A stretch of DNA of 64,000 bases from an uncultured Gammaproteobacteria bacterium (GCA_964536725.1 CAZHYJ010000003.1:39065-103064), one strand, 5' to 3'. Counted from the first letter of the stretch, positions 4,441 through 32,873 are shown. The notes: generated from the letters alone by a model not told the origin. Numbers and translations are program-made.

Positions 4441-4443
4441 TTT

Positions 4444-15439: not shown

Positions 15440-15513
15440 AGGGGCGTCGTATAGTGGCAGTACATCTCTCTCCAAAAGAGCAAGTGTGGGTTCGATTCCT
15501 ACCGCCCCTGCCA
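15440..15513 (+). tRNA. tRNA-Trp (anticodon CCA), 3' CCA encoded
   Basis: Acceptor AGGGGCG/CGCCCCT, D-stem GTAT/GTAC, anticodon loop CTCCAAA, T-arm GTGGG-TTCGATT-CCTAC, discriminator G then CCA. Confidence 0.8.
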
Positions 15514-18711: not shown

Positions 18712-21477
18712 ATGTCCTTACTTACCAAGATTTTCGGTGATCCTAACGCTAAGGTAGTGGCGTCCATAAAACCAATTGTTGAAAAAATAAACTCCCTGGA
18801 ACCCTCCATGGAGAAGTTGTCATTAGAAGAATTACGTGGTAAAACCACGGAGTTTAAAGATCGTCTCCAAAAAGGCGAAACTTTGGATGATATTTTGCCC
18901 GAGGCTTTTGCAGTGGTACGTGAAACTTCGCGCCGGATAACCGGCATGCGTCATTTTGATGTTCAGCTGATCGGTGGCGTGGTTTTGCATCGTGGGCAAA
19001 TTGCTGAGATGAGAACTGGTGAGGGTAAAACTTTGGTAGCAACACTGCCAATATATTTAAATGCCTTAGCCGGTCGTGGTGTGCACCTGGTAACCGTTAA
19101 TGATTACTTGGCTAAACGTGATGCCGTCTGGATGGGTCAGATTTATGACGCACTCGGACTCAGTATCGGTATTATCCAACAGCAGATGATTTCATATAAA
19201 TATGTAAAGACTAAGTTGTTGTCAGCGGAAGAAGTAAAAGAAAATGAAAACGCGGTTACAGTGACAGGTGAAAAAGAAGATAGTCAGTTGGCGAAATTTA
19301 AAGTGGAGATGGAACATCTGGAACCATGTACGCGTAAAGAAGCATATGCCTGTGATATCACTTACGGCACCAACAATGAATACGGTTTTGATTATCTGCG
19401 CGACAACATGGTGCAGAGCATGGAAGAGATGTCACAGCGACCTTTTTTCTTTGCAATCATCGATGAGGTAGATTCGATTTTAGTGGATGAGGCGCGCACC
19501 CCTTTGATTATCTCTGCTCCCGCTGAGGAAGCGGCAAATTTGTATTACAAGTTTGCGGATCTGGTCAAGCAGTTGGTGATCAACGAAGATTACAATGTTG
19601 ATGAAAAAATGCGGGCAGCCACTTTGACAGAAGAAGGTATCCATAAAATGGAACAGTGGCTTGGTATTGAAAATATTTATGCGGAAGGTGGAACTAGTAC
19701 AGTACATCACGTGGAGCAAGCTTTGCGTGCCTTTGCACTTTTCCGTCGTGATCGTGATTATGTCGTAGAAAATGGGGAAGTGGTAATCGTGGACGAATTT
19801 ACCGGTCGCAAAATGCCCGGTCGTCGTTACAGTGAAGGTTTGCACCAAGCGATTGAAGCGCAAGAAAAAGTGGAGATTCAGCGTGAGAGTCGTACTTTGG
19901 CGACCGTTACTTTTCAGAACTACTTTCGTCTCTATGCCAAACTAGCCGGTATGACTGGTACGGCTGTTACCGAAGCAGAAGAGTTTGGTAAGATTTACAA
20001 ATTGGAAGTGGTGGTAGTGCCAACCAACAAGTTGGCTCGTAGAACTGATCACCCCGATCGGATTTACAAAACGGAAGAGGCGAAATATCAGGCGATTGCT
20101 AAAACAGTAAAAGAATTTCAAACCAAAGGCCAACCAGTTTTGATTGGTACTATTTCGGTAGAAAAAAATGAAGAGTTGAGTCTGTATTTAGAACGGGAAG
20201 GAATCAAACATGAAATTTTGAATGCAAAAAACCATGAACGTGAAGGTGAAATCGTCGCGCAAGCCGGTCGGGCTGGGGCTGTGACATTAGCCACTAACAT
20301 GGCGGGACGTGGTGTTGATATTATCTTAGGTGGTAACCCACCAGACAAAGAGTTAGCAGAAAAAGTGAAAGATGCCGGTGGTTTGTTTGTGATTGGTACC
20401 GAGCGCCACGAATCACGCCGTATTGATAACCAGTTGCGTGGTCGTGCTGGTCGCCAGGGCGATCCGGGTGAAACCCAGTTTTTCCTTTCTACCCAAGACG
20501 ATTTGATGCGCATTTTTGCTGGCGACCGAATTCGTTCGGTGATGGAAACATTGCGCGTGCCGGATGATATGCCGATTGAACAAAAAAGTATTACTAAATT
20601 AATTGAATCCGCGCAAAAGAAAGTGGAAGGTTTCCATTTTGATACCCGCAAACATTTATTAGAATACGATGATGTCTTAAATCGTCATCGTGAAGTTATC
20701 TACGGCAAACGCCGTGAGATTTTGGAAACTTTTGTCAAAGAAAAAGCGGCTTTGACTGGTGAGGAAAAACCAACTAAAACTTTACGTGAGTTGGTTTTCA
20801 AAATGATTGAAGATGAAATTGAACAGGTAGTTTCTTTTCATACCAACACTGAAGAACGCCAAGATTGGAATTTGAAAGAAATTCAGGAAACAGTGGCGAC
20901 TATCTTCCCGCTGAACACGAAGGAAAAAGAAAAGATTTTGGAATACAGTAATCACGGTACAGAAAAATTGGACGCAGTGAATGTGCGCACTGAGTTGATC
21001 GAATATTTAATGGAGATGGCGCGATTGCGATATGATGAGATGTTAGTGAACAAAGCACCCGATCCAGAAATGATGTTGGAAATCGAAAAGCAAATGTTGT
21101 TGCGTTCGATTGATAACCTGTGGGTGGAACATTTGGTGGCTGTGGATTATCTGCGCACCGGTATTGGTTTGCGCGGTTATGGCCAGAGAGATCCGCTGGT
21201 GGAATACAAAAAAGAAACTTACCACATGTTTAATGAGTTGTTGAGTTTGATTCAAAAAGAATTGGTTTATAGTATTTACAAAGTCAGTGCTGGAATTGAT
21301 CTGGCGCCGAGCGTGATGTCGCGAGGTAATGTGATTTTAAAGGGTGCGGAGACAGGCGAAGAACAGGTAGTGACTAAGGGGGCGATAAAAGATGCTGAAG
21401 GGAACAAAGTGGGGCGCAATGATTTGTGTCCGTGTGGGAGTGGGAAAAAGTTTAAGAAGTGTCATATGAATGTTTAG
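18712..21477 (+). CDS. secA: preprotein translocase ATPase SecA (with C-terminal zinc-binding tail CPCGSGKKFKKCH)
   Basis: Full-length SecA: DEAD-like motor motifs, preprotein cross-linking domain, C-terminal Zn finger. Confidence 0.95.
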   Translation: MSLLTKIFGDPNAKVVASIKPIVEKINSLEPSMEKLSLEELRGKTTEFKDRLQKGETLDDILPEAFAVVRETSRRITGMRHFDVQLIGGVVLHRGQIAEMRTGEGKTLVATLPIYLNALAGRGVHLVTVNDYLAKRDAVWMGQIYDALGLSIGIIQQQMISYKYVKTKLLSAEEVKENENAVTVTGEKEDSQLAKFKVEMEHLEPCTRKEAYACDITYGTNNEYGFDYLRDNMVQSMEEMSQRPFFFAIIDEVDSILVDEARTPLIISAPAEEAANLYYKFADLVKQLVINEDYNVDEKMRAATLTEEGIHKMEQWLGIENIYAEGGTSTVHHVEQALRAFALFRRDRDYVVENGEVVIVDEFTGRKMPGRRYSEGLHQAIEAQEKVEIQRESRTLATVTFQNYFRLYAKLAGMTGTAVTEAEEFGKIYKLEVVVVPTNKLARRTDHPDRIYKTEEAKYQAIAKTVKEFQTKGQPVLIGTISVEKNEELSLYLEREGIKHEILNAKNHEREGEIVAQAGRAGAVTLATNMAGRGVDIILGGNPPDKELAEKVKDAGGLFVIGTERHESRRIDNQLRGRAGRQGDPGETQFFLSTQDDLMRIFAGDRIRSVMETLRVPDDMPIEQKSITKLIESAQKKVEGFHFDTRKHLLEYDDVLNRHREVIYGKRREILETFVKEKAALTGEEKPTKTLRELVFKMIEDEIEQVVSFHTNTEERQDWNLKEIQETVATIFPLNTKEKEKILEYSNHGTEKLDAVNVRTELIEYLMEMARLRYDEMLVNKAPDPEMMLEIEKQMLLRSIDNLWVEHLVAVDYLRTGIGLRGYGQRDPLVEYKKETYHMFNELLSLIQKELVYSIYKVSAGIDLAPSVMSRGNVILKGAETGEEQVVTKGAIKDAEGNKVGRNDLCPCGSGKKFKKCHMNV

Positions 21478-21509
21478 GCAAAAAGGGCTCTGTATAGAGC
21501 TCTTTTTTT
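21448..21509 (+). repeat. attL-like junction: secA 3' end plus terminator hairpin (copy 1 of an imperfect direct repeat)
   Basis: gtttaagaagtgtcatatgaatgtttaggcaaaaagggctctgtatagagctcttttttt matches 31658-31729 at about 85% identity. Confidence 0.6.
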
Positions 21510-21512
21510 AAT
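21478..21512 (+). terminator. rho-independent terminator of secA
   Basis: Hairpin AGGGCTCT-GTAT-AGAGCTCT followed by a T7 run. Confidence 0.7.
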
Positions 21513-21603
21513 TATCAAATTGGGTAGAGTTACTTTTTTGAGTACTATCTACAGTTTTTCTCCTCTCGGTTTGTATTGACCCCTACTCACATGGTTTTAA
21601 AGT

Positions 21604-23163
21604 CTACAGAACAAAATCTATTTCGATTTTTCCATCTCCAGCCCTAATTTGTTTTATTACTGTACGCAATATTTGTTTTTTCTCATCCAACATCATGGCT
21701 CCCCACAAATTATCAAAATCTTTAAGCGTGGCGGCAAATTTCTTTAAGACTTCTATGTTTTGATCTAGCTGCATCAGGTTGGTCTTGGTGCGTACAATTT
21801 CTTGTTCATATCGTTCTTTATCAACGCGAAGTCTGGTCATGGCCTCTCCGTATTGTTCGGTGGTTATTATGTTTTTTTCAAATGCTTCCTGCTGCCTTTT
21901 TAGCCGCTCTGGCAGACGACTGTGCTCTTGCTCTAATTTAGTCAATTCATCTGATAAATTTTGTTTAGTGTCACTATTACCACTGTAAATAATTCGCTCC
22001 TGTATTTTTGGGTTGCCGTATAAACATCTAATTTGATCAAGGACGGCACCTTCTAGTTTAGTTGCACTCATAATACGTGGTGAACAAATGCCAGAATATT
22101 TATAGCCACTGCAGAGATATTCATAGGTTGTGGTGTCAGACCAATTTTTATTGAGTTGTGAACGCTTGTGGTGTCGCGTCTGATAGTTTCCACCTTTACC
22201 ACATCTGATACATTTTAACAAGCCAGTCAACAATCCAAGTGAACGAGCGGATCCTCCAAACGCCGCCTTACTACGTTCTCGTTTGGTGCTTTGTGCTTTG
22301 GTAAATATTTCTTCTGATATTATTGGCTGGTGATTGCCTTGTACGGTAATTCCTTCTCTGCCTCTAAGTTGCTTTTCTTTTGTCTTTTTATAATCTGCAA
22401 ACCTCCACCCCCACCAAACTTTTCCAGTATAAGTGATATTACTTAGAATGTATCTGATTGTATGTGCAGTCCACACCCCACCTTTAGGGCTAATTTTTCC
22501 GCACCTATTAAGTTCTGTGGCTATCTTTTGTACACCAGCTCCTTTGGTATATTGGTTAAAAATATGACGAATAAGTGGTGCGGCTTCATTGTCTAGACTA
22601 ATTTCACGTTTAATTTTTCCATGATCGTCAATTGATTTTTTAACTGAATATCCAAAAGGCACTCGGTTTGGAATGATACCTTGTTTTGCTTTGCTGTTTC
22701 TTCCCATTTTCATGCGACGGCTAATCGCTTTGCGTTCTAAGTCCGAGCGTATGTCAGACATTCCTTCTACCATTATGTTTATGTCATCGTCATCTGAATC
22801 GTATGTTTTTGGGTCTCGTGGTTCAACAGGGGAGTTTATAGCATATGTTTGGATGCCGAGATCCTTTAACTCTTCACGTGTGATAGTGGCAGCAGCACGA
22901 TTGCGAGCAAAACGATCAAAATCTTTTACAATTACTAAATTAAATTTATGGTTGCGCGCGTCACGTAAGAGAGATTGAAACCCTACTCTTTCCTCGGTTA
23001 AGTGGCCACTTATGCCAAGATCAACGTATTTATTGTAAAGTGTCCAACCTGCATGTTCGTTGATAACACGTCTGCAGGCCTCCTCTTGATCGGCTGGCGA
23101 AGCTTTTCCATCAGCTTGTTCTTTAGTTGATACCCGAATGTAAATCGCGGCTGTTATATTCAT
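21604..23163 (-). CDS. large serine recombinase (resolvase/invertase catalytic domain, recombinase domain and zinc ribbon)
   Basis: N-terminus AAIYIRVSTKEQ with the catalytic Ser, then DLGISG and RFARN motifs; about 520 aa with a Cys-rich C-terminal region; start set at the Met of MNITAAIY. Confidence 0.85.
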   Translation of the reverse strand: MNITAAIYIRVSTKEQADGKASPADQEEACRRVINEHAGWTLYNKYVDLGISGHLTEERVGFQSLLRDARNHKFNLVIVKDFDRFARNRAAATITREELKDLGIQTYAINSPVEPRDPKTYDSDDDDINIMVEGMSDIRSDLERKAISRRMKMGRNSKAKQGIIPNRVPFGYSVKKSIDDHGKIKREISLDNEAAPLIRHIFNQYTKGAGVQKIATELNRCGKISPKGGVWTAHTIRYILSNITYTGKVWWGWRFADYKKTKEKQLRGREGITVQGNHQPIISEEIFTKAQSTKRERSKAAFGGSARSLGLLTGLLKCIRCGKGGNYQTRHHKRSQLNKNWSDTTTYEYLCSGYKYSGICSPRIMSATKLEGAVLDQIRCLYGNPKIQERIIYSGNSDTKQNLSDELTKLEQEHSRLPERLKRQQEAFEKNIITTEQYGEAMTRLRVDKERYEQEIVRTKTNLMQLDQNIEVLKKFAATLKDFDNLWGAMMLDEKKQILRTVIKQIRAGDGKIEIDFVL

Positions 23164-23361
23164 ATAATAGCATGTTAATTTAATAAAAAAAATGGAATAC
23201 AAAAAGGGGCAGTCGAAGGTCTACCCACGTTTAGTACTACGAAAGTGCTAATTGTGGAATCGAATGCCCCTTTTTGTGCGCAAAAAGATATGACAGTTTC
23301 GTAGCTGAAATCGTGGGTAGACGATATTAGTATAACAAAACAGGAAGATCTTTTCAACATG

Positions 23362-23652
23362 TTAATTATTGTTAATTTGACGTTCAACCACTGTGTTGAT
23401 CAGGCCAGCTACCATATCAGCGAGGCGGGAAGCAAGAAAATCACCATTTAGATTATTTGTGATTATAATTAATTTTTGTCCTGCTGTGCACAAGGAGCCA
23501 TCACTATCATCGGATGAATCTGGGCCATCCGACTTAGCTTTTCTGCTCTGCCTCTGCGAATGTGTTTGTCTTCCTCTAGATCTTACCTGCCTATTTTTGA
23601 TTTGCAGATTTACCACCCTGCGAGCGGTTACACTTTTTGGAATATTTGCCAT
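23362..23652 (-). CDS. hypothetical basic/acidic small protein
   Basis: 96 aa ORF inside the island; Arg-rich N-terminal part, Ser/Asp-rich middle. Confidence 0.3.
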   Translation of the reverse strand: MANIPKSVTARRVVNLQIKNRQVRSRGRQTHSQRQSRKAKSDGPDSSDDSDGSLCTAGQKLIIITNNLNGDFLASRLADMVAGLINTVVERQINNN

Positions 23653-23663
23653 ATTAGTAATTT

Positions 23664-23927
23664 TTATTTATTAGTATCTTTTTGATCTTTGTTAGTGTCA
23701 TCAGAATCAAATTCTTGCTGGTTTTCATCGATACAACTAGAATTTTTCACAACAGGTTCATTGTGGTGGATATTTTTACCTCCCTTACCTTTACGGGAAG
23801 GATTATGGCCCATTCTATAGTCATATAATGGGCAGTCATTTGATGGACAAAACTGAACTTCTTTTCTTTGACCACACATACAATTTAAACAGTTTTGTCT
23901 TATTGCTTTAATTGGAGTTAGTGTCAT
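23664..23927 (-). CDS. small zinc-ribbon protein
   Basis: CLNCMCGQRKEVQFCPSNDCPLYDY Cys cluster. Confidence 0.4.
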   Translation of the reverse strand: MTLTPIKAIRQNCLNCMCGQRKEVQFCPSNDCPLYDYRMGHNPSRKGKGGKNIHHNEPVVKNSSCIDENQQEFDSDDTNKDQKDTNK

Positions 23928-24146
23928 ATTAATTATTAAATTAATGATTATTGCAGAGGCAGGTATGTGTTAAAAGCACCTGCCTCTATTTATAGTATTT
24001 CACTCCTACCCTTACAGTTTGTACCCACCTCTACCAACAGACAGACGAACCGACAAACCACGACTCTATAGGTTGCATATATAGGGTGCAATTCTACACC
24101 AGTTATTACAGGTACTATTTTGGTGGGTCTAGTAAAGCTTTTGCAT

Positions 24147-24974
24147 TTAAGGAGGACGAGTTTTTTGTCGTTGCCCCCAGTGTGCTTTTAAACTAAACCT
24201 CACCAGACTAATACCCGTAAATTTAAATCTGTTTGGTAAAGTTCGCATCAGGTAGTTTTTTTCATTTTTTACTTGGATAGAATAGGCATATGGGTTATCT
24301 CCAACACGATCTTTTATTTGATCATCTACCACAGTATCCATATTGATTAGAATCCAATTGGAAAGAGTCGTTTTGATTTCTATATTTTGATAAACTCGCG
24401 TGTTTGGTATTATTTTCGCTTTGGATATCTGTATTTGATATATAATGGTTCGCTTTGATACATTGAACTTTTTGGCCATCTTAGTGTAAGACAATCGGCC
24501 TACGGTAATTTTTCGTTTATATTTTCTGTCTAAATCACATTCTGCGTATAGCCGAATGATCAGCGCTTTAAACTTGGTATTGTTGTTTAGCAGTTCCAAG
24601 AGACCTTTGTTCAATCTTTGTTTTCTTTTAAGTGTTCCATTCATTCTAAGTTTGTGGAGCTTGCAGATCGCTTTCCAAGACAGGTAGTATATTTTTTTGT
24701 GTCCAATTCCAGAAAATAATCCAGATTTTCTACAGGAACGTATAGTATGACGTAAATTGTCCCCGGTAAATTTTATTAGTTGATCAGTATCTACACATCC
24801 TGTGCCTGTTGGATTTAGAATATGTCTACATATGAACCAAATGCGTAGAGGCCCTACTAGGTTTTTGTGGTGCTGATAAAAATGAAAAAGAACATTAAGG
24901 TGGAAAGAAATTATTTTTGGAGTAGAATTTTTCATTTTATATATCGTTAAATAACAAAACGCACATATGAACAA
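24147..24974 (-). CDS. hypothetical protein with C-terminal helix-turn-helix (sigma region-4-like)
   Basis: Segment RLSYTKMAKKFNVSKRTIIYQIQISKAKI resembles an HTH; the true start may be the internal Met (MKNSTPK, about 24935). Confidence 0.4.
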   Translation of the reverse strand: MFICAFCYLTIYKMKNSTPKIISFHLNVLFHFYQHHKNLVGPLRIWFICRHILNPTGTGCVDTDQLIKFTGDNLRHTIRSCRKSGLFSGIGHKKIYYLSWKAICKLHKLRMNGTLKRKQRLNKGLLELLNNNTKFKALIIRLYAECDLDRKYKRKITVGRLSYTKMAKKFNVSKRTIIYQIQISKAKIIPNTRVYQNIEIKTTLSNWILINMDTVVDDQIKDRVGDNPYAYSIQVKNEKNYLMRTLPNRFKFTGISLVRFSLKAHWGQRQKTRPP

Positions 24975-25249
24975 TATCCAACCCCCATCTCCTAAAAAGC
25001 GGGGGTTAATATTTTATCTTCATATGTGCGCTACAAGTATTGTTGCCTTTTGCAACCGCGAATGTGATCGCAATATCACTCCGCCTTTTTATTGGTTTGG
25101 TCTATTTGGTAATATTTTATCGGAAGAAAACTGGTACCAAGTCATTTTGTGAATAAATTCACAATACCTGAATGATCTAAATATTTTTTGAATGTCTAAT
25201 TGATCAAAAAAACGGCATAAATTTGATGGATAAGTAATTAATTATTTTG

Positions 25250-25930
25250 TTAGCTGGTTAGTACTGCCTCTGCAAATTGCTTGTTGGCAAGGGATTTTAT
25301 ATCTGCGTTATATGATTCTTCCAGATTATTCCATTGGCGAAAGAAACGGATGGCGCGTTTAGTTGGTCGGCCATTATAAGAAATTCTGTCCATGCTTTCG
25401 CGTAATTTAGCCAACTTAATTCTTTTGTGAACATAATAGGGAAGTCCACCCAATGATTTTTTGTTGATTCTGGTTGACTCATAAGCTAATTCGCTGCAAA
25501 TACGACATACAAACAGGCTGTTTTTAGGCAGGTATAGTTTGTTGCATTTTCTACCACAATCACAGGTAAAGTAATATCGTGTTCCATATTGTAATTCTTG
25601 GGTTGATAATTTAATTGTCTGTTCTGCCCCACTGTCCATATGTGTGGCATCTTTTACAAAAAATATTTCTAGCATTAATTTTTCTCCTTCTAATTTCACT
25701 TCGTAATTGATAAATAGATTGCCGGTAGTCCCTCTAATCATAAATTTGCCTCTTCTACCCTTGGGTTTGACTAAATCTGGGAATAACTTTTCCTCTATAC
25801 CAGAGACCTGGTGTAGTAGTTTTTTGCCAAAGTCACCAATGCAGAGAGTGTGAGATTCCTCTACCAACGCTTTGACAGGTGGTTCTCTTTTTAGTATTTC
25901 AATTATGTCATTTTTGGTTAGATTTTCCAT
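25250..25930 (-). CDS. hypothetical protein with internal zinc ribbon
   Basis: 226 aa; CDCGRKC...CRIC Cys pairs; no family recognised. Confidence 0.4.
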   Translation of the reverse strand: MENLTKNDIIEILKREPPVKALVEESHTLCIGDFGKKLLHQVSGIEEKLFPDLVKPKGRRGKFMIRGTTGNLFINYEVKLEGEKLMLEIFFVKDATHMDSGAEQTIKLSTQELQYGTRYYFTCDCGRKCNKLYLPKNSLFVCRICSELAYESTRINKKSLGGLPYYVHKRIKLAKLRESMDRISYNGRPTKRAIRFFRQWNNLEESYNADIKSLANKQFAEAVLTS

Positions 25931-26203
25931 ATTTTTAACGATATTTTATTATCTATTATTAATTATTTCATAAGTACATCAGGTCAGTCTAATGTTTTAA
26001 AAAGAGAAAAAAAAGAGGGCCATACCCGATAGTATGAGTCCCGTGAATAGCAGGAGGACCCAAAACAAACCACTGCCCCTACCCGCCTATATAACCAATG
26101 TTATTATTTCCCTTTTATCAATACCTGCCTCTACCGTTAGCTACTATTTCTTTAGATAAGCCCCGCCACCGGAGCTTATTTTATTTTTAACTTATATGTA
26201 TCT

Positions 26204-26488
26204 ATGTCAGAAGTATTAAGCAACTATTCTGGATCTGCAATTACTGCCCAGACAGTTGCCTTAGAAATAGAGAAGCGTTGGGGTAGGACAGAAGTCGAGA
26301 AGTACGATCCATTTTCTAACTGTTTAACATATCGGCGGTGGGCAGAGTTAGATTACAGGGTTAAAAAAGGGGAGAAGGCGATCCGTAGTAAAACCTTCGT
26401 AGAGAAAAAAGACGAACTTGGTAATATAATAAAAAAATACCCAAAGACAGTCTGCCTCTTCTATTACCTTCAAGTAGAAAAAATATGA
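26204..26488 (+). CDS. ArdC-N (DUF1738)-like ssDNA-binding domain protein
   Basis: LTYRRWAELDYRVKKGEKAIRSKTF matches the ArdC N-domain core pattern (W.T..QA...G..V.KGEK.....F); identification by eye only. Confidence 0.45.
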   Translation: MSEVLSNYSGSAITAQTVALEIEKRWGRTEVEKYDPFSNCLTYRRWAELDYRVKKGEKAIRSKTFVEKKDELGNIIKKYPKTVCLFYYLQVEKI

Positions 26489-26691
26489 AGGTAAAAAACC
26501 AAAGACTGGTGAGTTATCGCCGCTATAGCATAAATGGACAACCAACGCCATTTCTTCCAATCGAGGGAAAGTTCCTAGAACAGTATGGTTTCAATATCGG
26601 ATGCGCCGTCGATGTTCAATACTCAAACGGCTTTGTGTCCATCAAAAAGATCATACAAGATCGTTACGGAGATAAATTTAATATTAAATAA
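26485..26691 (+). CDS. SymE-like toxin (SpoVT/AbrB fold)
   Basis: QRLVSYRRYSINGQPTPFLPIEGKFLEQYGFNIGCAVDVQYSNGFVSIKKI parallels the E. coli SymE core ([47 protein letters not shown]); overlaps the upstream gene by 4 nt. Confidence 0.6.
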   Translation: MKVKNQRLVSYRRYSINGQPTPFLPIEGKFLEQYGFNIGCAVDVQYSNGFVSIKKIIQDRYGDKFNIK

Positions 26692-26693
26692 CT

Positions 26694-26957
26694 ATGCATA
26701 AAAAAATTTTAAACAACATACAAAGAACAAATCTATCTCTGTTAGACCCCATAATCGTGGGTGAGCTAAAATCTGGTAATTGGCGCAACTCACCAAGTCC
26801 ATTGCTGCACTGTATTAAATGCGGTGGTTATAAAATCACCACGCCGATAATCCAGTTTTATGGTTATCTGGGAGAGAGGTTAGTATGTTATGAGTGCCAG
26901 AAATTAATTCAGTCTAATTTAAAATCATATGAACCATACCAACGTTGCAGTCGTTAA
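26694..26957 (+). CDS. small zinc-ribbon protein
   Basis: CIKCGGYKITTP...CYECQKLI Cys pairs. Confidence 0.35.
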   Translation: MHKKILNNIQRTNLSLLDPIIVGELKSGNWRNSPSPLLHCIKCGGYKITTPIIQFYGYLGERLVCYECQKLIQSNLKSYEPYQRCSR

Positions 26958-27657
26958 ACCTGCCCCGACTATAGTATCTATACCTGCTCTGTCTCTACAG
27001 GAGGCGATAGAACCTTCCAAGGTGCTTGAATTCGCTCACAAGGCAGCTAAAGCGCTCAAAGACGTCATTGATAGTAGTTCTAAGAAAGTAATGATCAATG
27101 GCGAACAGTTTCTGACCTTTGAAAATTGGCAGACAATAGCCCGGTTCTATAATATAACTGTCGGAACAGAATCTACTAAGCCAATAACCAAAGACAATAA
27201 GATATTTGGCTATGAAAGCAAGGCAGTAGCATATCGTGACGGCATAATTATTTCCTCCGCAGAAGCTAGTACTTTTAGAGATGAGGCAAGTTGGAGAGAT
27301 AAACCAAGTTTCCAACTAAAGTCTATGGCACAAACCAGGGCAGCGGCTAAGTGTTTAAGGAATATATTAGCGTGGGTTGTCGTGCTTGCAGGGTATAAAC
27401 CTACCCCTGCGGAGGAAATGATCGAACACAATGCACCTGTCTCTGCTGATAGTTATAGTGCCACTAAGAATTTCAGATCTTGGGAGGACGCTAAAGAGAA
27501 TGTAATCACTCCTAAACAATCTTCGCTTCTGCGGTCTCTCATAATTGAAAAAGTGCTAGACGAAGATGCTCGTGAGCAGAAACTCAGCGAAATTAAAGAT
27601 TTAACCAAGTCTGATGCTTCTATTTGGATATCCGACCTTATTAACGATAGAGTATGA
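26929..27657 (+). CDS. possible phage-type single-strand annealing protein (RecT/Redbeta-like); function tentative
   Basis: MINGEQFLTFENWQTIARFYNI and KSMAQTRAAAKCLRNIL resemble conserved RecT-family segments; recalled pattern only. Confidence 0.3.
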   Translation: MNHTNVAVVKPAPTIVSIPALSLQEAIEPSKVLEFAHKAAKALKDVIDSSSKKVMINGEQFLTFENWQTIARFYNITVGTESTKPITKDNKIFGYESKAVAYRDGIIISSAEASTFRDEASWRDKPSFQLKSMAQTRAAAKCLRNILAWVVVLAGYKPTPAEEMIEHNAPVSADSYSATKNFRSWEDAKENVITPKQSSLLRSLIIEKVLDEDAREQKLSEIKDLTKSDASIWISDLINDRV

Positions 27658-27986
27658 TGTATTTAATCGTCATAATCGTCGTTGTGGCTATCTTTTGTGC
27701 GCTTCGTAAGTTCTTTCTAGGTGACGATGTCTCTAGTTCGCCACAGTACAAGAATGTTGATGTTGTCCTGTCTCTGCCGGTAGAGATAGTTGCAAATCAT
27801 AGACCCACAATGTCTATAAGTGAGAGAGAAAGGCGTAGGCGCAACTTGTTGCAGAGTGTTTATGCTCTTGGTTTTAGACATGCCAACGCTTACAAGATAT
27901 TAGACGCTCGCGATCACGACTTTTCTCTATTACCGTATTATTACCTAAGTAATAAACAAAAAATATATGTTGACCCACCAAAATAA
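27654..27986 (+). CDS. small membrane protein
   Basis: N-terminal TM helix; translationally coupled to neighbours. Confidence 0.35.
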   Translation: MMYLIVIIVVVAIFCALRKFFLGDDVSSSPQYKNVDVVLSLPVEIVANHRPTMSISERERRRRNLLQSVYALGFRHANAYKILDARDHDFSLLPYYYLSNKQKIYVDPPK

Positions 27987-28185
27987 ATCTCCTGAAGATA
28001 AAGCATCACTGTTATTCCTATTGTCGTTTTGGTTTGTGATCCTACCTGCGTTGTTTGCCTGTTTCATTATCGTTTTGTTTCTTCCAGGTTTACGGGAGTC
28101 TCTTTCGGATATTCTGGCGGTAAGCTTCTTCGTATTTGCTGGATTGTCTCTGTCGTATTGGGGGATAAAGCGTTTTAAAAAGTAA
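27967..28185 (+). CDS. small two-TM membrane protein (holin-like topology)
   Basis: 72 aa with two hydrophobic helices and a charged C-terminus. Confidence 0.3.
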   Translation: MLTHQNKSPEDKASLLFLLSFWFVILPALFACFIIVLFLPGLRESLSDILAVSFFVFAGLSLSYWGIKRFKK

Positions 28186-28193
28186 TTGCCGGG

Positions 28194-28230
28194 GCAGTAG
28201 CTAAAAACTACTGCCTTTTATTTTTATTGA
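28194..28230 (+). terminator. rho-independent terminator
   Basis: GCAGTAG-CTAAAAA-CTACTGC hairpin followed by CTTTTATTTTT. Confidence 0.6.
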
Positions 28231-28438
28231 CTAAACCGCCTAAAAGTAGCATAATAATTATGACAATTTAATGACCTAAACCATTGGGTAAAATCGGTGG
28301 CATGGTCGAAAAACGTATACACACAGAGATGGACTCACCATCTTTGGTATGTGTATGCGTCAATATTCGAAAGGATATTGGGGTCCGAAAGGTCCCGCCA
28401 AAGTATGGTAGTCCTTTTTTGTATATAATTATTTTTTT

Positions 28439-28996
28439 ATGTCTTTCCTAGATTATATTTCGGGCAGAGTCGGTACAATTAACAAACTCAGAGACTTAGT
28501 TTGCGGAAAATACCGAAATCGCATAGACAATGTTTTGTCATCTGGCAATAAAGATGTATCAACTTCACCGGAATTTAGTGTTTGTTTGATGGCCGTTATT
28601 CACACTGAATACATGATACTTAATTCTTTTCAGCCAGATGTTGATTTGTTTATGAAGTATTCAAATAATATTTCTGAACATTATTTTGATGAAATATATA
28701 AAATAATGGTTGTTTGGTTTATCTACCATAATTTTAAACTTTTCCCAGAGACAAAGAATATTGATGAAAAAAAATTCCAAACTTTTTTAGCTTTAATATT
28801 TGAAATACTGCCTGATAAATTTGAATATATCCAAAATAATTTTATCAATTCTGGCAATGACATTGACGGTTATTTTGAACAAATATGTAATTGCATTTCA
28901 GCAAACAAGAACGATTCTATGGCGTTCATTAAATTTTCAAAACTTGCAGCGGAAAGTCACAAAAGTGCATTATCTATTTTAACAAACGGTGTTTAG
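28439..28996 (+). CDS. hypothetical protein
   Basis: 185 aa ORF in the island; no motif recognised. Confidence 0.4.
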   Translation: MSFLDYISGRVGTINKLRDLVCGKYRNRIDNVLSSGNKDVSTSPEFSVCLMAVIHTEYMILNSFQPDVDLFMKYSNNISEHYFDEIYKIMVVWFIYHNFKLFPETKNIDEKKFQTFLALIFEILPDKFEYIQNNFINSGNDIDGYFEQICNCISANKNDSMAFIKFSKLAAESHKSALSILTNGV

Positions 28997-29022
28997 CTTA
29001 GTTGTTTAAATATAATTAGCAT

Positions 29023-30315
29023 ATGAATAAATATCTTAAGTTGCTTCCAATTTTTCTGTTGTTTGGTTTGTTGTTTATAAAACCAGTAAAAGCAACAATG
29101 GCATGCATGGAGGGTGTTCCAGATGTGAACACAATGAATAGCTGGCCACGTGAGCAATTAGATGCGTTCAATAGGCAATTACAGGCCAATTGTCAGCGTG
29201 AAAGAGATGCTATAGCGGCAGAGGCAGAATATCAGGCCAACTTAGTAGAGATAGAGTATCAAGGGTATGTTGATAGTTTTAATATTCACCAGAAGGCGCT
29301 GGATGGTTTAAAAGAAGCTAATCTTGCGTTGTATAATAAATGTCATACTAGTTCTTTGTCTATTTGCATAATAGGGGATAGTGTTACGGACTTATCAAAC
29401 CAATCTTTTGGCCAGTTAAGTGTAATAGTCGCTTCAAAAGTAAATTGCGTGAATGCGATTAATAAATGCATGTCGGCAGAGCAAGACAATACTAAGTATG
29501 ATGCTTTGTGTAAAAATACTCTTGGACCATACGGAGCTTTGGATCGTTTGACTTCTGACACTTATTATTGCAAGTGTATTGGTGGTTATGTGAAATCAAA
29601 TAATCGTTGTGTAGATGTTGCAACGGATAATGATAGTGGTTGTAAAAGTAGATACGGTAATAATAGTTATTTTTTAAAAATCAAAGACGACGGTACGGTG
29701 ACTTGCGATTGCGTTTCGGGTTATAAATGGCAGGGCAATACTTGCGTTAAAGATGTGCCTGTTTTAGCTCCAATAACTGTGACTACGCCAGACCAATTAT
29801 GTCAAAATAAATATGGGCAATTTTCTAAATCTATTTCAAATGTAAATGGTCAAAATATATGCGATTGTTTAGGTGGTTATAGCTGGAATCAAGGTCAGAC
29901 CCAGTGCGTTAAATTAGAAGATAATAAAGTTGTTGATTGTAAGAAAGGTACTGTTGATCGTAGTGGAGTATGTTTGACTCCACAACAAGATTGTGAAAAT
30001 TCCTATGGCCCAGATGCTAAAGCAGTTGAAGATGGTTCCGATTTGGGATATACTTGTCCTGTGGTACCGAAAAATACCAAATCAAAAATTGTCGAAAATC
30101 CACCAGTAGAGAAAATTAAAACGCTTGATATAGAAGTGGTCAAATTGGACAATGGCAACAAAATTGTTTCATCCACAGTGCCACTGTTAACAGATGTAAT
30201 GAATAATATAACAATCACAACACCACCTCAAATAAGTATAGAAAAACCAAAACCGGTAAGTATCTTTTTTAACGCCATAAAATCATTCTTCCGCTCTATT
30301 TTCAGATTAAGATAA
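29023..30315 (+). CDS. secreted cysteine-rich repeat protein (CxC-x2-GY-x-W/K...C modules)
   Basis: Signal peptide; at least three repeats such as YYCKCIGGYVKSNNRCVDV, VTCDCVSGYKWQGNTCVKDV and ICDCLGGYSWNQGQTQCVKL; about 34 Cys. Confidence 0.55.
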   Translation: MNKYLKLLPIFLLFGLLFIKPVKATMACMEGVPDVNTMNSWPREQLDAFNRQLQANCQRERDAIAAEAEYQANLVEIEYQGYVDSFNIHQKALDGLKEANLALYNKCHTSSLSICIIGDSVTDLSNQSFGQLSVIVASKVNCVNAINKCMSAEQDNTKYDALCKNTLGPYGALDRLTSDTYYCKCIGGYVKSNNRCVDVATDNDSGCKSRYGNNSYFLKIKDDGTVTCDCVSGYKWQGNTCVKDVPVLAPITVTTPDQLCQNKYGQFSKSISNVNGQNICDCLGGYSWNQGQTQCVKLEDNKVVDCKKGTVDRSGVCLTPQQDCENSYGPDAKAVEDGSDLGYTCPVVPKNTKSKIVENPPVEKIKTLDIEVVKLDNGNKIVSSTVPLLTDVMNNITITTPPQISIEKPKPVSIFFNAIKSFFRSIFRLR

Positions 30316-30368
30316 TCTGTGGTATAAATAAGCACAGCTTAGTTCACTAATTCCTAGCCACAAACCAT

Positions 30369-31250
30369 ATGAAGCAATTCTTTTTAAATCTGCTAAAATT
30401 AGCCTTCTCTTTTATCACGATAGTGTCTATTATCGCCGTCTGGATGACTCTATCATATTATGTTATTAAAGTTTGCGTACCAGCCTTCTCCGTTGACACA
30501 AGCACCGATACTTCAACGACAGAAACAGTAGAAAGCACCGAAGAAGACTGCAATGTTTACGGTATAAACCTCCACGGTGACGTTATTACATATCACACAC
30601 CCGACTCATTTAATAGCGAAGGTGACCTAATGTTTGACCAAACCTCAGCTGATGTAGTAATGAGGCTTATTACCGAAGCAGAAAATGATGATGATATTAA
30701 ATACGTAATAGTTGAAATATCTTCTTCTGGTGGATCACCAGCCGCTGGTTTTGAAATGATGCAGGCGTTTAGAAGTTCGACCAAGCCAGTAGTTGCGTTT
30801 GCTAGGGATGGTGCTATGTCTGCAGCCTATTTGGCGGCAACAGGGGCACAAACAATATTTGCGTCTCACGCTTCAGATATAGGTTCAATCGGGGTAACGG
30901 CCTCATATCTAGAGAATGTGGAACAAAACAAAAAGGAGGGATTAAAATATATTGATTTAAGTGTTGGAAAATTTAAAGACACAATGAACCCAAACCGCGC
31001 GCTTACCAACGAAGAAAAACAACTAATAATGCGAGACATTGTATTATTGAATGAAAATTTTATAAAAACAGTAGCCGAAAATCGTAAATTAGACATTAAA
31101 AAAGTCCGCCTACTTGCTGATGGATCCACGATGATGGGGGAGGATGCTCTTAAGAATGGTTTGATTGATAAAATCGGGAACTTATATGATGTGGAGGATT
31201 TTGTTAAAGATAAAATAGGGGAGGAAGTAAATATTTGCTGGAAGAATTAA
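30369..31250 (+). CDS. S49-family serine peptidase (signal peptide peptidase SppA-like, ClpP/crotonase fold), membrane anchored
   Basis: N-terminal TM helix; VIVEISSSGGSPAAGFEMMQA...GAMSAAYLAATGAQTIFASHASDIGSIGV matches the SppA Ser/Lys dyad region. Confidence 0.65.
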   Translation: MKQFFLNLLKLAFSFITIVSIIAVWMTLSYYVIKVCVPAFSVDTSTDTSTTETVESTEEDCNVYGINLHGDVITYHTPDSFNSEGDLMFDQTSADVVMRLITEAENDDDIKYVIVEISSSGGSPAAGFEMMQAFRSSTKPVVAFARDGAMSAAYLAATGAQTIFASHASDIGSIGVTASYLENVEQNKKEGLKYIDLSVGKFKDTMNPNRALTNEEKQLIMRDIVLLNENFIKTVAENRKLDIKKVRLLADGSTMMGEDALKNGLIDKIGNLYDVEDFVKDKIGEEVNICWKN

Positions 31251-31428
31251 GTATTAAAAGGGGCTAAATAGCAATAGTTTAGACCTTTTTTATATTATTA
31301 ATTACTTTACTTAACATGGCAATCTTCTGATGGTAATTATCTAACCGGAATTTTTATTAGGTTAGCCGGATCGGTAGTTTACATGTTGGTGCCGCTTATT
31401 TTGAAGGACTTAAAACTTTGGTAGCACT

Positions 31429-31593
31429 ATGATGTCAGATCAAGAATTTAGAAAACATTTACCTAAAGACAAAGAGTGCACTGATGAAGAAGTAAATGAA
31501 TTAAGAAGAGTAATGTATGGCTTGGCAGATCTTGCCTTTGATAAGTGGGTAAAGGAGAAGGGGATTAAGGTTGATAAGTTAAATGCGGAGTAG
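31429..31593 (+). CDS. hypothetical small protein (54 aa)
   Basis: ORF below the track threshold: MMSDQEFRKHLPKDKECTDEEVNELRRVMYGLADLAFDKWVKEKGIKVDKLNAE. Confidence 0.25.
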   Translation: MMSDQEFRKHLPKDKECTDEEVNELRRVMYGLADLAFDKWVKEKGIKVDKLNAE

Positions 31594-31657
31594 TTTGAAT
31601 TTGGTATTGTTTTCTGTTAAACTGCCAGCAGTGTTTAAGCGGTGTTTAAAGTCTAAA

Positions 31658-31729
31658 CATTAGACTAACACTTCAAGAAGTGTCATGGTAATGTTTAGGC
31701 AAAAATGGCTCTGTACAGGGCCATTTTTT
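31658..31729 (+). repeat. attR-like repeat: degenerate copy of the secA 3' end (HFKKCHGNV-stop) plus terminator hairpin, containing the dyad site ACACTTcaagAAGTGT
   Basis: About 85% identical to 21448-21509; hairpin AATGGC...GCCATT plus T-run; upstream perfect inverted repeat AGTCTAA-ACA-TTAGACT at 31649-31665. Confidence 0.6.
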
Positions 31730-31791
31730 AAACTTGACATTCGTCTAATTTCCGTCTATAATACGTCTATAAAGTACTTCATTCAAACCCT

Positions 31792-32823
31792 ATGTTCCAG
31801 CCAAAATACACCATTACACCAAGGTTGTTGGCTAATATCAAAAGAATAGCTGAGTTGGTGGTTGAATTAAACAGCAGACATTTTCCTAAAATTGTCTTAT
31901 TGGATTTCGAAAAAAGAGCCAGAGAAATTTCGGCTCATTCTTCCACCGGCATAGAGGGCAATCCTTTACCCTTAACTGAAGTAAAACGTTTGTTAAAACA
32001 TGCGCCAGAGCGTAGGCGAGATAGTGAGAAAGAAGTATTAAATTACAACAATGCTTTGGAATATTTAAACAGTCTGCTTAATCAGAGTGGTTTTAAATTT
32101 GATTTGAATTTAATTTTGGATATTCAAAAGAAGGTTACCGCTGATTTGATTCACGAATTTCGTTCTGGTAAAATTCGCCAGGAACCGGTGTTTGTAAATA
32201 ATCCCCAAACTCGACGGACGGTTTATTATCCACCAGATCATCAGGATGTTCCAAACATGGTAAGTGATTTGTTGCAATTTACAGCAGTTAACGAAAGCAA
32301 ACTCGATCCGTTGGTGGTAGCTGGTATTTTTCACAAGCAGTTTGTAGTTATTCATCCTTTTGTTGATGGCAACGGACGAACTACTCGTTTGGCCACGAAA
32401 ATGCTTTTAGCCAGAATGGGTTTAAATACTTTTAATCTATTTAGTTTTGAAAATTATTATAACAATAATGTCACTAAATATTTTCAAAATGTTGGTTTAA
32501 TCGGCAACTACTATGATTTAAAAAACGATATTGATTTTACCCTGTGGCTAGAATATTTTACTGATGGTATTATTGATGAGCTCTTAAGAGTCGGTGGAGA
32601 ATTGGTTAAAACAAATATCACACCGGAAAATGAGTTAAAACCTTACCATCAAGAAATATTAAGCTATATCAAGAATAATAATTTTATCAAAGACAGCGAT
32701 TACTCTAAACTTACCAAGCGAGCCAAACCAACAAGGAATTTAGATTTTAGAAAGTTAATTGAGCTTGGTTTAATTGAAAAACAGGGCAAGGGTAAAAGTA
32801 CCTACTATATTTTGAAGAAATAA
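31792..32823 (+). CDS. Fic/Doc-family protein (adenylyltransferase-type Fic domain with C-terminal winged-helix)
   Basis: Canonical HPFVDGNGRTTR active-site motif. Confidence 0.85.
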   Translation: MFQPKYTITPRLLANIKRIAELVVELNSRHFPKIVLLDFEKRAREISAHSSTGIEGNPLPLTEVKRLLKHAPERRRDSEKEVLNYNNALEYLNSLLNQSGFKFDLNLILDIQKKVTADLIHEFRSGKIRQEPVFVNNPQTRRTVYYPPDHQDVPNMVSDLLQFTAVNESKLDPLVVAGIFHKQFVVIHPFVDGNGRTTRLATKMLLARMGLNTFNLFSFENYYNNNVTKYFQNVGLIGNYYDLKNDIDFTLWLEYFTDGIIDELLRVGGELVKTNITPENELKPYHQEILSYIKNNNFIKDSDYSKLTKRAKPTRNLDFRKLIELGLIEKQGKGKSTYYILKK

Positions 32824-32825
32824 TG

Positions 32826-32860
32826 TAAACATTAAATTAACACTTTAAGAAGTGTCATGG
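32826..32860 (+). repeat. third copy of the recombination-site core (taaacattaaattaacactttaagaagtgtcatgg)
   Basis: 33 of 35 nt identical to 31654-31688; carries the dyad ACACTTtaagAAGTGT; with copy 2 it brackets the Fic gene as direct repeats. Confidence 0.55.
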
Positions 32861-32873
32861 GGTGTAAAGCGAT

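Follow-up and report, generated by a model that had tools for sequence, protein, structure and literature searches.

A probable integrative element encoding a large serine recombinase at the 3' end of secA in an uncultured Patescibacteria bacterium

Genes, repeats and features of the secA locus

We analysed a stretch of 64,000 nt of DNA (hereafter, the window), whose host is an uncultured Patescibacteria (CPR) bacterium. The 3' end of secA is followed there by an island with a G+C content of 0.33-0.41, as compared to 0.41-0.46 for secA and the sequence upstream of it. The locus presents the following features, of which the att sites and arms are defined by the analyses described below.

18712-21477, + strand: secA, an ORF of 921 aa; SecA Pfam domains were recorded for the identical gene on contig L009
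21456 to the end of secA: element-derived part of the gene, the rest of a Lys codon and then Lys-Cys-His-Met-Asn-Val-stop
21430-21479, + strand: attL, with secA-coding left arm (B), AA at 21454-21455 and right arm of the element (P')
21454-21455: putative crossover dinucleotide AA, with partners at 31675-31676 and, in a relic site, at 32847-32848
21456-21511, + strand: P' arm, with surrogate secA end KCHMNV, stop codon at 21475-21477 and bidirectional intrinsic terminator at 21480-21507
21604-23163, - strand: large serine recombinase (LSR), 519 aa, convergent with secA
23205-23335, - strand: conserved structured leader (inverted repeat) preceding the LSR gene, possible attenuator
23362-25930, - strand: ORFs o96, Cys-rich o87, o275 and o226, without family matches
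26204-28185, + strand: conserved core module, o94, o68, o87b, o242, o110 and o72
26929-27657, + strand: o242, candidate Rad52/Sak-type annealing protein (fold matches with moderate scores)
28273-28396, + strand: LOOT RNA (Rfam RF03000), a structured RNA
28439-31593, + strand: variable cargo, o185, Cys-rich secreted protein, SppA/S49 peptidase and o54
29023-30315, + strand: Cys-rich secreted protein of the variable cargo
30369-31250, + strand: SppA/S49 peptidase (S49, 109.6 bits)
31651-31700, + strand: attR, with left arm of the element (P), AA at 31675-31676 and right arm of the pre-existing site
31677-31732, + strand: relic P' arm of an older element, with KCHGNV, stop codon and terminator
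31734-32823, + strand: cargo of the Fic cassette, promoter and Fic gene
31734-31762, + strand: Fic promoter, perfect TTGACA-17-TATAAT (12/12)
31792-32823, + strand: Fic gene (Pfam Fic, 66.6 bits)
32826-32867, + strand: relic attR of the Fic cassette, with P-like arm, AA at 32847-32848 and probable ancestral secA end
32844-32867, + strand: probable ancestral secA end, FKKCHGV and stop codon

A repeat search of the window identified a direct repeat of 66 nt between 21446-21511 and 31667-31732, with 82% identity (12 of 66 positions differ) and a spacing of 10,221. This agrees, including in its coordinates, with a previous sequence-only reading of the window, which had described imperfect direct repeats of about 85% identity at the secA end; the reading frames that it had given, KFKKCHMNV* for copy 1 and HFKKCHGNV* for copy 2, were both recovered. 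A third, partial copy of 35 nt was found at 32826-32860, with 91% identity to the left part of copy 2. Its frame, FKKCHGV*, ends immediately 5' of the NUDIX start codon. Copy 2 was also detected as a near-palindrome by itself in an inverted-repeat search. Across the 64 kb, the terminator part of the repeats (AATGTTTAGGCAAAAANGGCTCTGTA) was found nowhere but in the two repeat copies, even when three mismatches were allowed, and shuffled sequences yielded matches in 0 of 100 cases. The repeats therefore do not represent a generic family of terminators, which the sequence-only reading had named as a condition that would refute it. The core sequence AAGAAGTGTCAT presented exactly three occurrences (21454, 31675 and 32847), a number that none of 100 shuffles reached. 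Finally, the pattern of the P arm was found only in the sites 31651-31700 and 32826-32867, for a shuffle expectation of 0.00.

In the P' arm, a terminator-like hairpin with a predicted 12-bp stem occurs on the + strand, and a mirrored one on the opposite strand. The same design, a surrogate gene end followed by a terminator, was observed in the related element L011 and in the relic of locus L052.

The LSR gene, already recognized in the sequence-only reading, encodes Resolvase (90.9 bits), Recombinase (77.8 bits) and Zn_ribbon_recom (36.8 bits) domains, each scoring above its Pfam cut-off, and residues 398-505 gave a weak match of coiled-coil type. Residues Y8, R10 and S12 and the block D81/D83/R84/R87 were invariant in an alignment of 25 members of the clade. 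The LSR is intact and, by analogy with characterized enzymes, S12 is its likely nucleophile. The protein is homologous to the integrases of SPbeta, TP901-1 and A118, the SPbeta integrase being its nearest solved structure (E 1.7e-11), and it matched 444 phage records, all with 28% identity or less. The leader upstream of the gene contains a terminator-like site (23226-23207, - strand) and is kept in three related elements (L011, L015 and L054), with compensatory changes at 8 of 31 pairs across only four sequences. This leader may regulate the expression of the LSR.

Most of the remaining ORFs were more difficult to assign. Counterparts of o96 and o226 were found in the L011 element, and neither o275 nor o226 had an informative match in Pfam, PHROGs, NCBIfam, PADLOC or PDB sequences. 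Within the core module, o94 resembles ArdC-N, as previously proposed, but scores below the cut-off (21.1 vs 22.6 bits), and the SymE-like assignment of o68, here SymE/AbrB-like, is borderline (29.3 bits for a cut-off of 29). The protein previously described as possibly RecT-like, o242, is more probably an annealing protein of Rad52/Sak type, with moderate scores, and o110 and o72 are predicted membrane proteins. The S49 protease of the variable cargo was confirmed. This cargo is missing from L011, where an S8 peptidase and a large Ig-like protein occupy the same place. Profile searches of the element did not recognize genes for a recombination directionality factor, replication, packaging or conjugation. 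Other sub-clades have an HTH_17 excisionase-like gene ahead of that for the LSR, which is not the case here.

Empty sites, att sites and related elements

We identified the exact empty site, with the order secA-Fic-NUDIX, in three assemblies (L003, L005 and L006), which were obtained independently from metagenomes and represent the same organism. The sequence-only reading had expected secA to be directly followed by NUDIX, and the Fic gene between them was not anticipated. With lengths of only 2.0-2.6 kb, these contigs are nearly or fully identical to the window in their flanks: 287/287 and 195/195 nt on the left and 2348/2349 nt on the right. The junction of the two flanks falls exactly inside the 12-nt AAGAAGTGTCAT, and the two halves of the site match the left of attL and the right of attR in all three contigs. 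Their secA gene ends with ...KKCHGNV*, such that the relic P' arm is the working end of secA in the empty-site strains. The occupied form was itself assembled independently (L001 and L009, 100% identical to the window). Contig L004 was considered as a fourth empty site and was rejected, since it is an attR contig of the occupied form. Because the exact empty site was found in three assemblies, the segment of 10,221 bp represents a naturally polymorphic insertion with exact junctions. Using its exact pattern and a degenerate pattern of the P arm, we did not find the circular junction (attP) in the viral contig collection, and the sole match in a scan of JGI metagenomes for this junction was a relic of the Fic cassette on one JGI contig. 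The element may nevertheless be currently active.

The left 40 nt of attL are those of the empty site while its right side differs, and its arms are asymmetric (6/24). Conversely, the right side of attR is identical to the empty site (60/60), its left side is absent from it, and the site is a near-palindrome (19/24). The reconstructed attP is an imperfect palindrome of 46-50 bp, GTCTAAACATTAGACTAACACTTC-AA-GAAGTGTCATATGAATGTTTAGGC. Both ends are known for four elements, most right ends lying beyond the 10-kb flanks, and in 4/4 the dyad symmetry of attP peaked at AA alone: with arms of 20 nt, it reached 15 of 20 in the window, 14 in L015, 14 in L017 and 13 in L032, against 1-10 of 20 at every other offset. 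No symmetry was found in attB. Since the crossover must fall within the shared 12-nt core, the symmetry peak suggests that AA is the crossover dinucleotide. This dinucleotide opens the Lys-Lys-Cys-His (KKCH) codons of the C-terminal zinc finger of SecA. The crossover would thus be located inside the coding sequence, 21-23 nt before the stop codon, and not inside the terminator, as had been proposed.

The left halves of attP and attB are distinct, whereas their right halves agree at 11-16 of 24 nt when the site is of virgin type and at 21 of 24 nt for the site that received the element in the window. Because its right half is this similar to the P' half-site of the element, the site used here is attL-like. 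In canonical models of serine integrases (PMC3783163), attP x attB is the sole pairing that recombines when a directionality factor is absent. Either this clade reads the identity of sites mainly from their left half-sites, or the history of the locus was more complex.

The linkage to secA extends to the entire family. Among LSRs 44-77% identical to that of the window, 25/25 belong to elements convergent with the 3' end of secA in diverse Patescibacteria; LSRs of 77, 65, 61, 54, 51 and 44% identity all adjoin a convergent secA end in differing host backgrounds. For the loci of GTDB representatives, 20/20 with an LSR of at least 44% identity were located at the secA end, as opposed to 0/3 at 26-34%, and relatives with LSRs of 35% identity or less do not lie at secA ends. 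The KKCH core was present at the junction in 22/23 loci. The genome scan was conducted with the alignment of 25 sequences; used as a single query, the LSR retrieved no matches in genome and viral scans. The clade comprises more than 100 sequence clusters. A contig of 9.9 kb (L054, LSR 65% identical) was considered as a possible free circle and was rejected, as it is another integrated copy adjacent to secA. The KKCH codons of secA are conserved in the Patescibacteria loci that we examined, which makes this target widespread. With relatives at this same locus, an empty site, a palindromic attP and 25/25 LSRs at secA ends, our results support the earlier proposal of a site-specific integration by an element that carries a surrogate secA end.

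History of the locus and alternative explanations

Our results make it very likely that 21456-31676 is a 10.2-kb integrative element encoding an LSR, inserted in the end of secA, and that the locus was built as a tandem array. The order of events may have been as follows. An older relative of the family would have integrated at the secA end and decayed to a 1.17-kb Fic cassette flanked by att sites. The new element would then have entered the secA-proximal att site of this cassette, with the LSR recombining its palindromic attP with the site at the 3' end of secA and exchanging strands at the AA that opens the KKCH codons. Its P' arm would re-encode KKCH, a three-residue tail and the stop codon, and would add a bidirectional terminator. 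This would result in the array secA, 10.2-kb element, Fic cassette, ancestral secA tail and NUDIX. Because the P' arm restores the gene end and its terminator, SecA is preserved, and the insertion is expected to impose little cost on the host.

The Fic cassette (31676-32848) presents a P' relic on its left and a P arm with the core on its right, and Fic is its only gene. With att-type sites on both sides and neither integrase nor transfer genes, it appears to be CIME-like. The right-hand repeat of the window is the surrogate end of this older, integrase-less cassette and not a displaced host end; the 66-nt similarity therefore compares one element arm to another rather than to the host. Together with the probable ancestral secA end, FKKCHGV* at 32844-32867, this indicates that the locus was formed by tandem accretion. 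In a different species (L052; SecA 68.7% and NUDIX 61.8% identical), the order secA-Fic-NUDIX and these same att relics are present without the LSR element, which indicates that the cassette was at this locus before the 10.2-kb element. The Fic protein matched the PADLOC model SoFic (E 1e-44) over positions 60-352 of the 361 of the profile, and its translation contains a visible HPFVDGNGRTTR motif. This full-length match and the active-site motif point to a SoFic-like, defence-like protein. This Fic family is very common among Patescibacteria, with 4408 matches, and two homologues, P0122 (89%) and P0124 (79%), are not located at secA, the locus of the latter (L051) being devoid of att relics; Fic is therefore not always cassette-borne. 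The cassette may be a decayed element or a mini-element mobilisable in trans.

Several other explanations were considered. The element could be a small temperate virus or a phage satellite, with the LSR as its integrase, the S49 peptidase as a head-maturation protease and the unannotated ORFs as structural genes. LSRs are indeed typical phage integrases, as illustrated by the 444 distant phage records, and annealing proteins of Rad52/Sak type are common in temperate phages, the one found here matching PHROG phrog_19042. However, the LSR had no relatives in IMG/VR and the annealing protein had no match in INPHARED. The peptidase matched a ClpP-related head-maturation model only weakly (24.7 bits); it fits SppA far better (148.6 bits, which is below the cut-off of 155.45) and has an N-terminal membrane segment. 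Families of capsid, portal, terminase, tail and lysis proteins were absent in Pfam, PHROGs and NCBIfam, although this is weak evidence because phage proteins of Patescibacteria are poorly annotated. In addition, 10.2 kb is below the size of tailed phages, and the cargo that varies among close relatives consists of secreted or surface proteins. Overall, we regard a viral origin as unlikely.

It is less probable still that 21456-32848 (11.4 kb, Fic included) arrived at the ancestral site as one composite, from which the 10.2-kb part was later excised. Copies 1 and 3 do form a canonical attL/attR pair around an attP-like copy 2 (P-AA-P'), and accreted composites are documented to be transferred in ICE/CIME systems (PMC5704250), but L052 carries secA-Fic-NUDIX and its att relics without the LSR element, and 12/66 positions distinguish the P' arm of one part from that of the other. 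Lastly, repeats of 66 nt and 82% identity could in principle support rare deletions by homologous recombination, and the short length of the empty-site contigs might suggest an assembly artefact. Yet the identical junction was obtained from three assemblers and samples, while two gave the occupied form, and it falls in the 12-nt core instead of the longer identical block of 16 nt. The element-specific P arm mirrors the P' arm, and 25 related LSR genes occupy this gene end in genomes that are unrelated. Contradicted by these family-wide data, recombination or artefact is effectively refuted as an explanation.

Given the integrative element that we favor, a more tentative suggestion concerns its sites. 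Because attP and the target must both encode the KKCH tail of SecA, the right half of attP might mimic that of the chromosomal target, only the left half might define site identity, and a usable secA target might be regenerated by every integration. We consider this possible, if doubtful. Were it true, secA would be an open-ended landing pad stacking elements and single-gene cassettes (Fic here and a SET-domain gene in L015), and insertion at the relic site would correspond to attL-type x attP-type giving attL-type + attP-type. Such an exchange is formally symmetric and therefore possibly reversible without a directionality factor, unlike the canonical unidirectional rule. The right end of this SET cassette in L015 was found to be only weakly P-like.

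Known systems and implications

A description of this element was found nowhere in the searchable literature, and we found no paper in which serine recombinases were connected with secA, or with integration in Patescibacteria. Its logic is known from SCCmec/rlmH and ICE/CIME; its target, phylum and recombinase clade are new. SCCmec and the Enterococcus cassette chromosome are likewise LSR islands with variable cargo at the 3' end of a conserved gene that is kept, with direct repeats of about 50 nt bearing the att sites. SCCmec targets rlmH and uses the ccrAB genes, whereas the element described here targets the zinc-finger codons of secA with one LSR gene, its arm bears a terminator in addition to the gene end, and its host is a Patescibacteria. 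Without a Ccr-type recombinase, and with secA rather than rlmH as target in 25/25 cases, it is an analogue of SCC and not a member.

Phage 21/e14 at icd and the integrases that target tRNA or tmRNA genes also carry a surrogate 3' end, which keeps the gene functional, and their targets are chosen for conservation; these are tyrosine recombinases with long identical cores. In contrast, the crossover here probably spans 2 nt, and the similarity of the arms would be held by coding constraint. The integrases of phiC31, Bxb1, A118, SPbeta and TP901-1 present the same domain architecture, palindromic attP sites of about 46-50 bp and an integrase gene beside attP. Several classical phage serine integrases disrupt their target gene, whereas the present element repairs it. 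Its LSR is distant from those characterized (28% or less for phage LSRs, SPbeta SprA being the best solved match).

In SCCmec-type systems, newly arriving elements integrate next to remnants that lack a recombinase and are retained at the site (PMC6222049). For ICE/IME-CIME systems, integration is followed by decay to an att-flanked CIME without integrase, and a new element then enters the att site located at the gene end (PMC5704250). This three-step history, as for ICESt1/ICESt3 at fda in Streptococcus thermophilus, fits the array of secA, element and Fic cassette. ICEs and CIMEs rely on tyrosine integrases and conjugative transfer, whereas a serine integrase was found here and transfer genes were not; for a serine integrase, recombination with an attL-type site is unexpected, unlike in ICE/CIME.

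Hardly any mobile elements have been described from the candidate phyla radiation. If our reading is right, an LSR clade of more than 100 clusters has one predictable insertion point, which makes its islands easy to locate in fragmentary Patescibacteria bins. Their cargo would be rich in secreted or surface proteins, along with a defence-like Fic, and relevant to an episymbiotic lifestyle. The clade would also constitute a natural set of diverged attP/attB pairs with a phylum-conserved target that could aid the development of genetic tools, of which few exist, and the near-identical right halves of attB and attP provide a test of serine-integrase site identity. Finally, the orphan LOOT RNA, which is undiscussed in the main text of the 2017 paper presumed to be the source of the motif, would be placed inside a mobile element. 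Its match in the window covers model positions 1-121 with 80.6 bits (gathering threshold 46.4), and it lies likewise within three related elements (L015, L026 and L044).

Repeats and empty sites at the secA 3' end

The sequence-only reading had proposed that an island integrated at the 3' end of secA, between two repeats that copy the end of this gene. Three copies of the secA end are relevant here:

21446-21511: copy 1
31667-31732: copy 2, right of the island
32826-32860: third copy, just ahead of the NUDIX gene

A repeat search recovered copies 1 and 2 as they had been described (66 nt, identity of 82%, spacing of 10,221 bp). Allowing up to three mismatches, the terminator part was matched at these two copies only in the 64-kb window, and the concern that the repeats might belong to a generic terminator family is not borne out. 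The 12-nt core AAGAAGTGTCAT occurred three times relative to 0.3 expected, and none of 100 shuffles yielded three occurrences. The third occurrence, at 32847, had only been hinted at; it is part of a 35-nt stretch (32826-32860) matching the left portion of copy 2 at 91% identity. The reading frame there gives FKKCHGV-stop, 6 nt ahead of the NUDIX start codon. In an inverted-repeat search, copy 2 also emerged as nearly palindromic, CTAAACATTAGACTAACACTTC AA GAAGTGTCATGGTAATGTTTAG. The G+C content is 0.33-0.41 in the island and 0.41-0.46 in secA and upstream.

We searched for empty sites among contigs encoding the exact NUDIX protein of 32874-33317. Three contigs, each of a separate assembly (L003, ERZ773284; L005, JGI 3300009769; L006, ERZ27257440), had secA directly followed by the Fic and NUDIX genes. 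Up to 21453, their left flanks agree with the window at every position (287/287 and 195/195 nt); their right flanks match it from 31687 onward (2348/2349 nt), and the join falls inside the shared 12-nt core. The predicted empty site therefore exists exactly, but in the arrangement secA-Fic-NUDIX rather than the anticipated secA-NUDIX. The occupied form was independently assembled in SRR11845624, with 100% identity to the window over 15.5 and 14.7 kb. A further contig, L004, was rejected as an empty site because it carries attR. The finding is real: the empty site, the symmetry of attP and the secA-targeting clade described below indicate that site-specific integration with a surrogate secA end was essentially the correct interpretation.

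Target of the recombinase clade and its proposed crossover site

The call of a large serine recombinase (LSR) was confirmed by its full domain set:

21604-23163, minus strand: complete LSR (domains: Resolvase, Recombinase, Zn_ribbon_recom)

The residues of the catalytic region were invariant in an alignment of 25 clade members. The distant kin of this protein are the integrases of SPbeta, TP901-1 and A118, with at most 28% identity to any phage LSR, and no relative was found in IMG/VR.

We reconstructed attP in silico by joining the right end of the element to its left end. The resulting site, GTCTAAACATTAGACTAACACTTC-AA-GAAGTGTCATATGAATGTTTAGGC, has arms (P on the left, P' on the right) that pair at 18/24 positions as an inverted repeat; the arms of attB (B and B') match at 6/24 only. 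For the four elements with both ends available (window, L015, L017 and L032), we then moved the assumed centre by up to 8 nt in either direction. A single symmetry peak (13-15/20) was found exactly at AA in all four, relative to 1-10 at other offsets, and from this sole peak we infer that AA (21454-21455 / 31675-31676) is the crossover dinucleotide. This dinucleotide opens the first Lys codon of K-K-C-H, whose C and H are the last two zinc ligands of the SecA C-terminal CPCGSGKKFKKCH motif. In the integrated state, element DNA provides the codons for C and H, three tail residues (MNV in place of GNV), the stop codon and a hairpin. The hairpin has a 12-bp stem between an A-run and a T-run and lies 96 nt from the stop codon of the LSR gene, which is convergent with secA. 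Since a terminator scan scored it on both strands, it is able to serve both genes.

More than 100 clusters of LSR homologues were identified with 43-77% identity to the window LSR, and the named ones belong to Patescibacteria (Daviesbacteria, Woesebacteria, Microgenomates group). The LSR gene was convergent with the secA 3' end in every one of the homologues at 77, 65, 61, 54, 51 and 44% identity, whose host neighbourhoods otherwise differ; no secA adjacency was seen in the inspected context of a homologue at 35%. An alignment-based scan of GTDB representative genomes yielded 23 loci, with record titles including Woese-, Davies-, Roizman-, Gottesman- and Taylorbacteria, Parcubacteria and others. 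The secA end was located about 10-130 nt past the LSR match in all 20 loci with at least 44% identity and adjoined the LSR in none of the three with 26-34%. The junction core AARAARTGYCAY was present at the secA end in 22 of 23 loci inspected, and the P arms are akin across elements, with the pattern CATTA-n-A-n-TA-n-CACTTC immediately followed by AA. Overall, 25/25 distinct elements (window, L011, L015, L017, L054 and the 20 GTDB loci) are located at secA: the entire Patescibacteria LSR clade targets the secA 3' end.

In L023, the surrogate secA tail has a length of about 35 codons. The SecA C-terminus of L030 (...KKADGTVIKYKKCHMDRN-stop; reverse-complement coordinates ~5115-5165) is without the CxC pair before KKCH; there, the Cys-His supplied by the element may be joined to a SecA whose zinc finger no longer has its first half.

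Probable tandem array and single-gene cassettes

At the virgin-type sites of relatives, agreement between B' and P' is confined to the innermost 11-16 of 24 nt. In the window, the right half of the target site is identical to the element's own P' at 21/24 positions, and this similarity continues through the terminator. The segment 31677-31732 thus appears to be the P' arm of an older element from the same sub-family, because the same P'-plus-terminator module is found in L011 and L052 and because the end of the Fic gene is marked by a P arm, the core and a secA-like tail that differs (32826-32867). The P-arm pattern of this tail region has no place in the window beyond the two P arms. The Fic unit (31676-32848; 1,172 bp) presents attL-type and attR-type sites on its flanks and no recombinase, and it thereby matches the definition of a cis-mobilizable element (CIME) in the ICE/IME literature. 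Taken as a whole, the locus appears to be a two-generation tandem array.

One point is genuinely puzzling. The canonical rule for serine integrases (PMC3783163) is that attP and attB alone recombine without a directionality factor, and integration into an attL-type relic site conflicts with this rule. This misfit underlies a less probable reading in which site identity is set by the left half-sites alone. The tandem array accords with the three-step accretion model of ICEs and CIMEs at gene 3' ends (PMC5704250). These systems are likewise close to the secA element, although the enzyme of the latter is a serine integrase. Functionally, the closest systems are SCCmec and the enterococcal cassette chromosome, in which LSRs place variable islands in the rlmH 3' region, leaving direct repeats of ~50 nt and remnants that coexist at the site (PMC6222049). 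The secA element is a member of neither SCCmec nor ICE/CIME, as target gene, host phylum and recombinase clade differ. No link of secA and Patescibacteria/CPR to serine recombinases or to integration emerged from our literature search, whose partial coverage does not prove novelty. Relative to the sequence-only reading, the analysis adds the exact empty site, a crossover placed inside zinc-finger codons, a probable two-generation array and a whole Patescibacteria LSR clade at the secA 3' end.

The same secA-Fic-NUDIX order with the same relics was found without an LSR element in L052, a locus from a different species (SecA 68.7%, NUDIX 61.8% and Fic 79% identical to the window counterparts). 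Because arrangement and relics are shared, the Fic cassette is either old or was acquired repeatedly. Further close Fic homologues are located away from secA, and the Fic locus of L051 has no att relics. At 5780-5925 of L052, a working secA end (KKCHGK-stop) is followed ~90 nt on by a truncated P' arm with terminator, nearly identical to window 21459-21508; the relic tail after Fic again reads KKCHGK-stop. This suggests possible further rounds of integration and excision at that site. In L015, a lone SET-domain gene (reverse complement 4409-5125) separates the LSR element from the secA end. On either side of it is a copy of the surrogate secA tail (P'), the two being almost identical (32/33 nt), and the right end of this cassette is only weakly P-like. 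It is probably a second one-gene insert at the secA landing site, on the secA-proximal side.

Cargo and upstream control regions

Eight small genes (o96, o226, o94, o68, o87b, o242, o110 and o72) are found in the same order in the window and L011 (77% LSR identity). Of the proteins proposed from sequence, the ArdC-N-like match fell below threshold in a profile search and the SymE-like match was borderline; the S49 protease held up, an SppA/S49 peptidase being recognised. This peptidase and a Cys-rich secreted protein form the downstream cargo, which varies among related elements; L011 has an S8 peptidase together with a large Ig-like protein instead. Family searches gave no indication of genes for a capsid, a terminase, a replication initiator, a relaxase or secretion in the window element, and the annealing protein o242 had no match in INPHARED. 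The 65% relative L054 (513-2573) codes for a reverse transcriptase (RVT_1, 686 aa) and a Toprim-domain protein (725 aa), and AAA_25/DnaB-like or primase-helicase genes are present in L011 and L023; all of these are missing from the element in the window.

With the PADLOC SoFic defence model, the Fic protein gave an almost full-length match (E 1e-44), and a perfect sigma-70-type consensus promoter precedes its gene. This promoter sequence also occurs in L051, away from secA. The Fic family (31792-32823) is unusually conserved: of 4408 matches at E <= 1e-30, the best 120 have ~67-89% identity. The matches represent many lineages of Patescibacteria (Magasanik-, Berkel-, Gracili- and Peregrinibacteria, Paceibacterota).

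LOOT RNAs (Rfam RF03000) were detected in four of the LSR elements that target secA, in each case on the strand that does not encode the LSR:

Window 28273-28396, plus strand: LOOT RNA
L015 5223-5341, minus strand: LOOT RNA
L026 7912-8031, minus strand: LOOT RNA
L044 2393-2507, minus strand: LOOT RNA

These scored 60-88 bits (gathering score 46.4), and none was found in the other 17 loci scanned, with 10 kb of each element covered. Our results suggest that LOOT is a mobile-element RNA of Patescibacteria.

The sub-clade sharing at least 61% LSR identity has a conserved leader of ~130 nt ahead of the LSR gene:

Window 23205-23335, minus strand: LSR leader
L011 ~9837-9971: LSR leader
L015 and L054, upstream of LSR: LSR leader

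Two mutually exclusive foldings are predicted: GTCTACCCACG...CGTGGGTAGAC plus CTACGAAA...TTTCGTAG, or a hairpin resembling a terminator (GGGGCA...TGCCCC), with a T-run after it. Compensatory changes affect 8/31 predicted pairs across only four sequences. The leader resembles a transcription attenuator or a riboswitch-like device that would control how the integrase is expressed. In most other clade members (L017-L020, L028, L029, L032, L036, L037, L040-L042, L044 and L045), it is replaced by a gene of 74-78 aa directly upstream (~230 nt) of the LSR; this HTH_17/MerR (excisionase-like) gene could encode a directionality factor or a regulator. In a third sub-clade (L027, L030, L031 and L035), a different long hairpin is located upstream of the LSR.

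Elsewhere in the window, we detected an AdoCbl riboswitch just at threshold (50.2 bits) and five tRNA genes, all ordinary features:

44116-44272, minus strand: AdoCbl riboswitch
14184-14453 and 15440-15510, plus strand: tRNA genes
48623-48693, minus strand: tRNA gene
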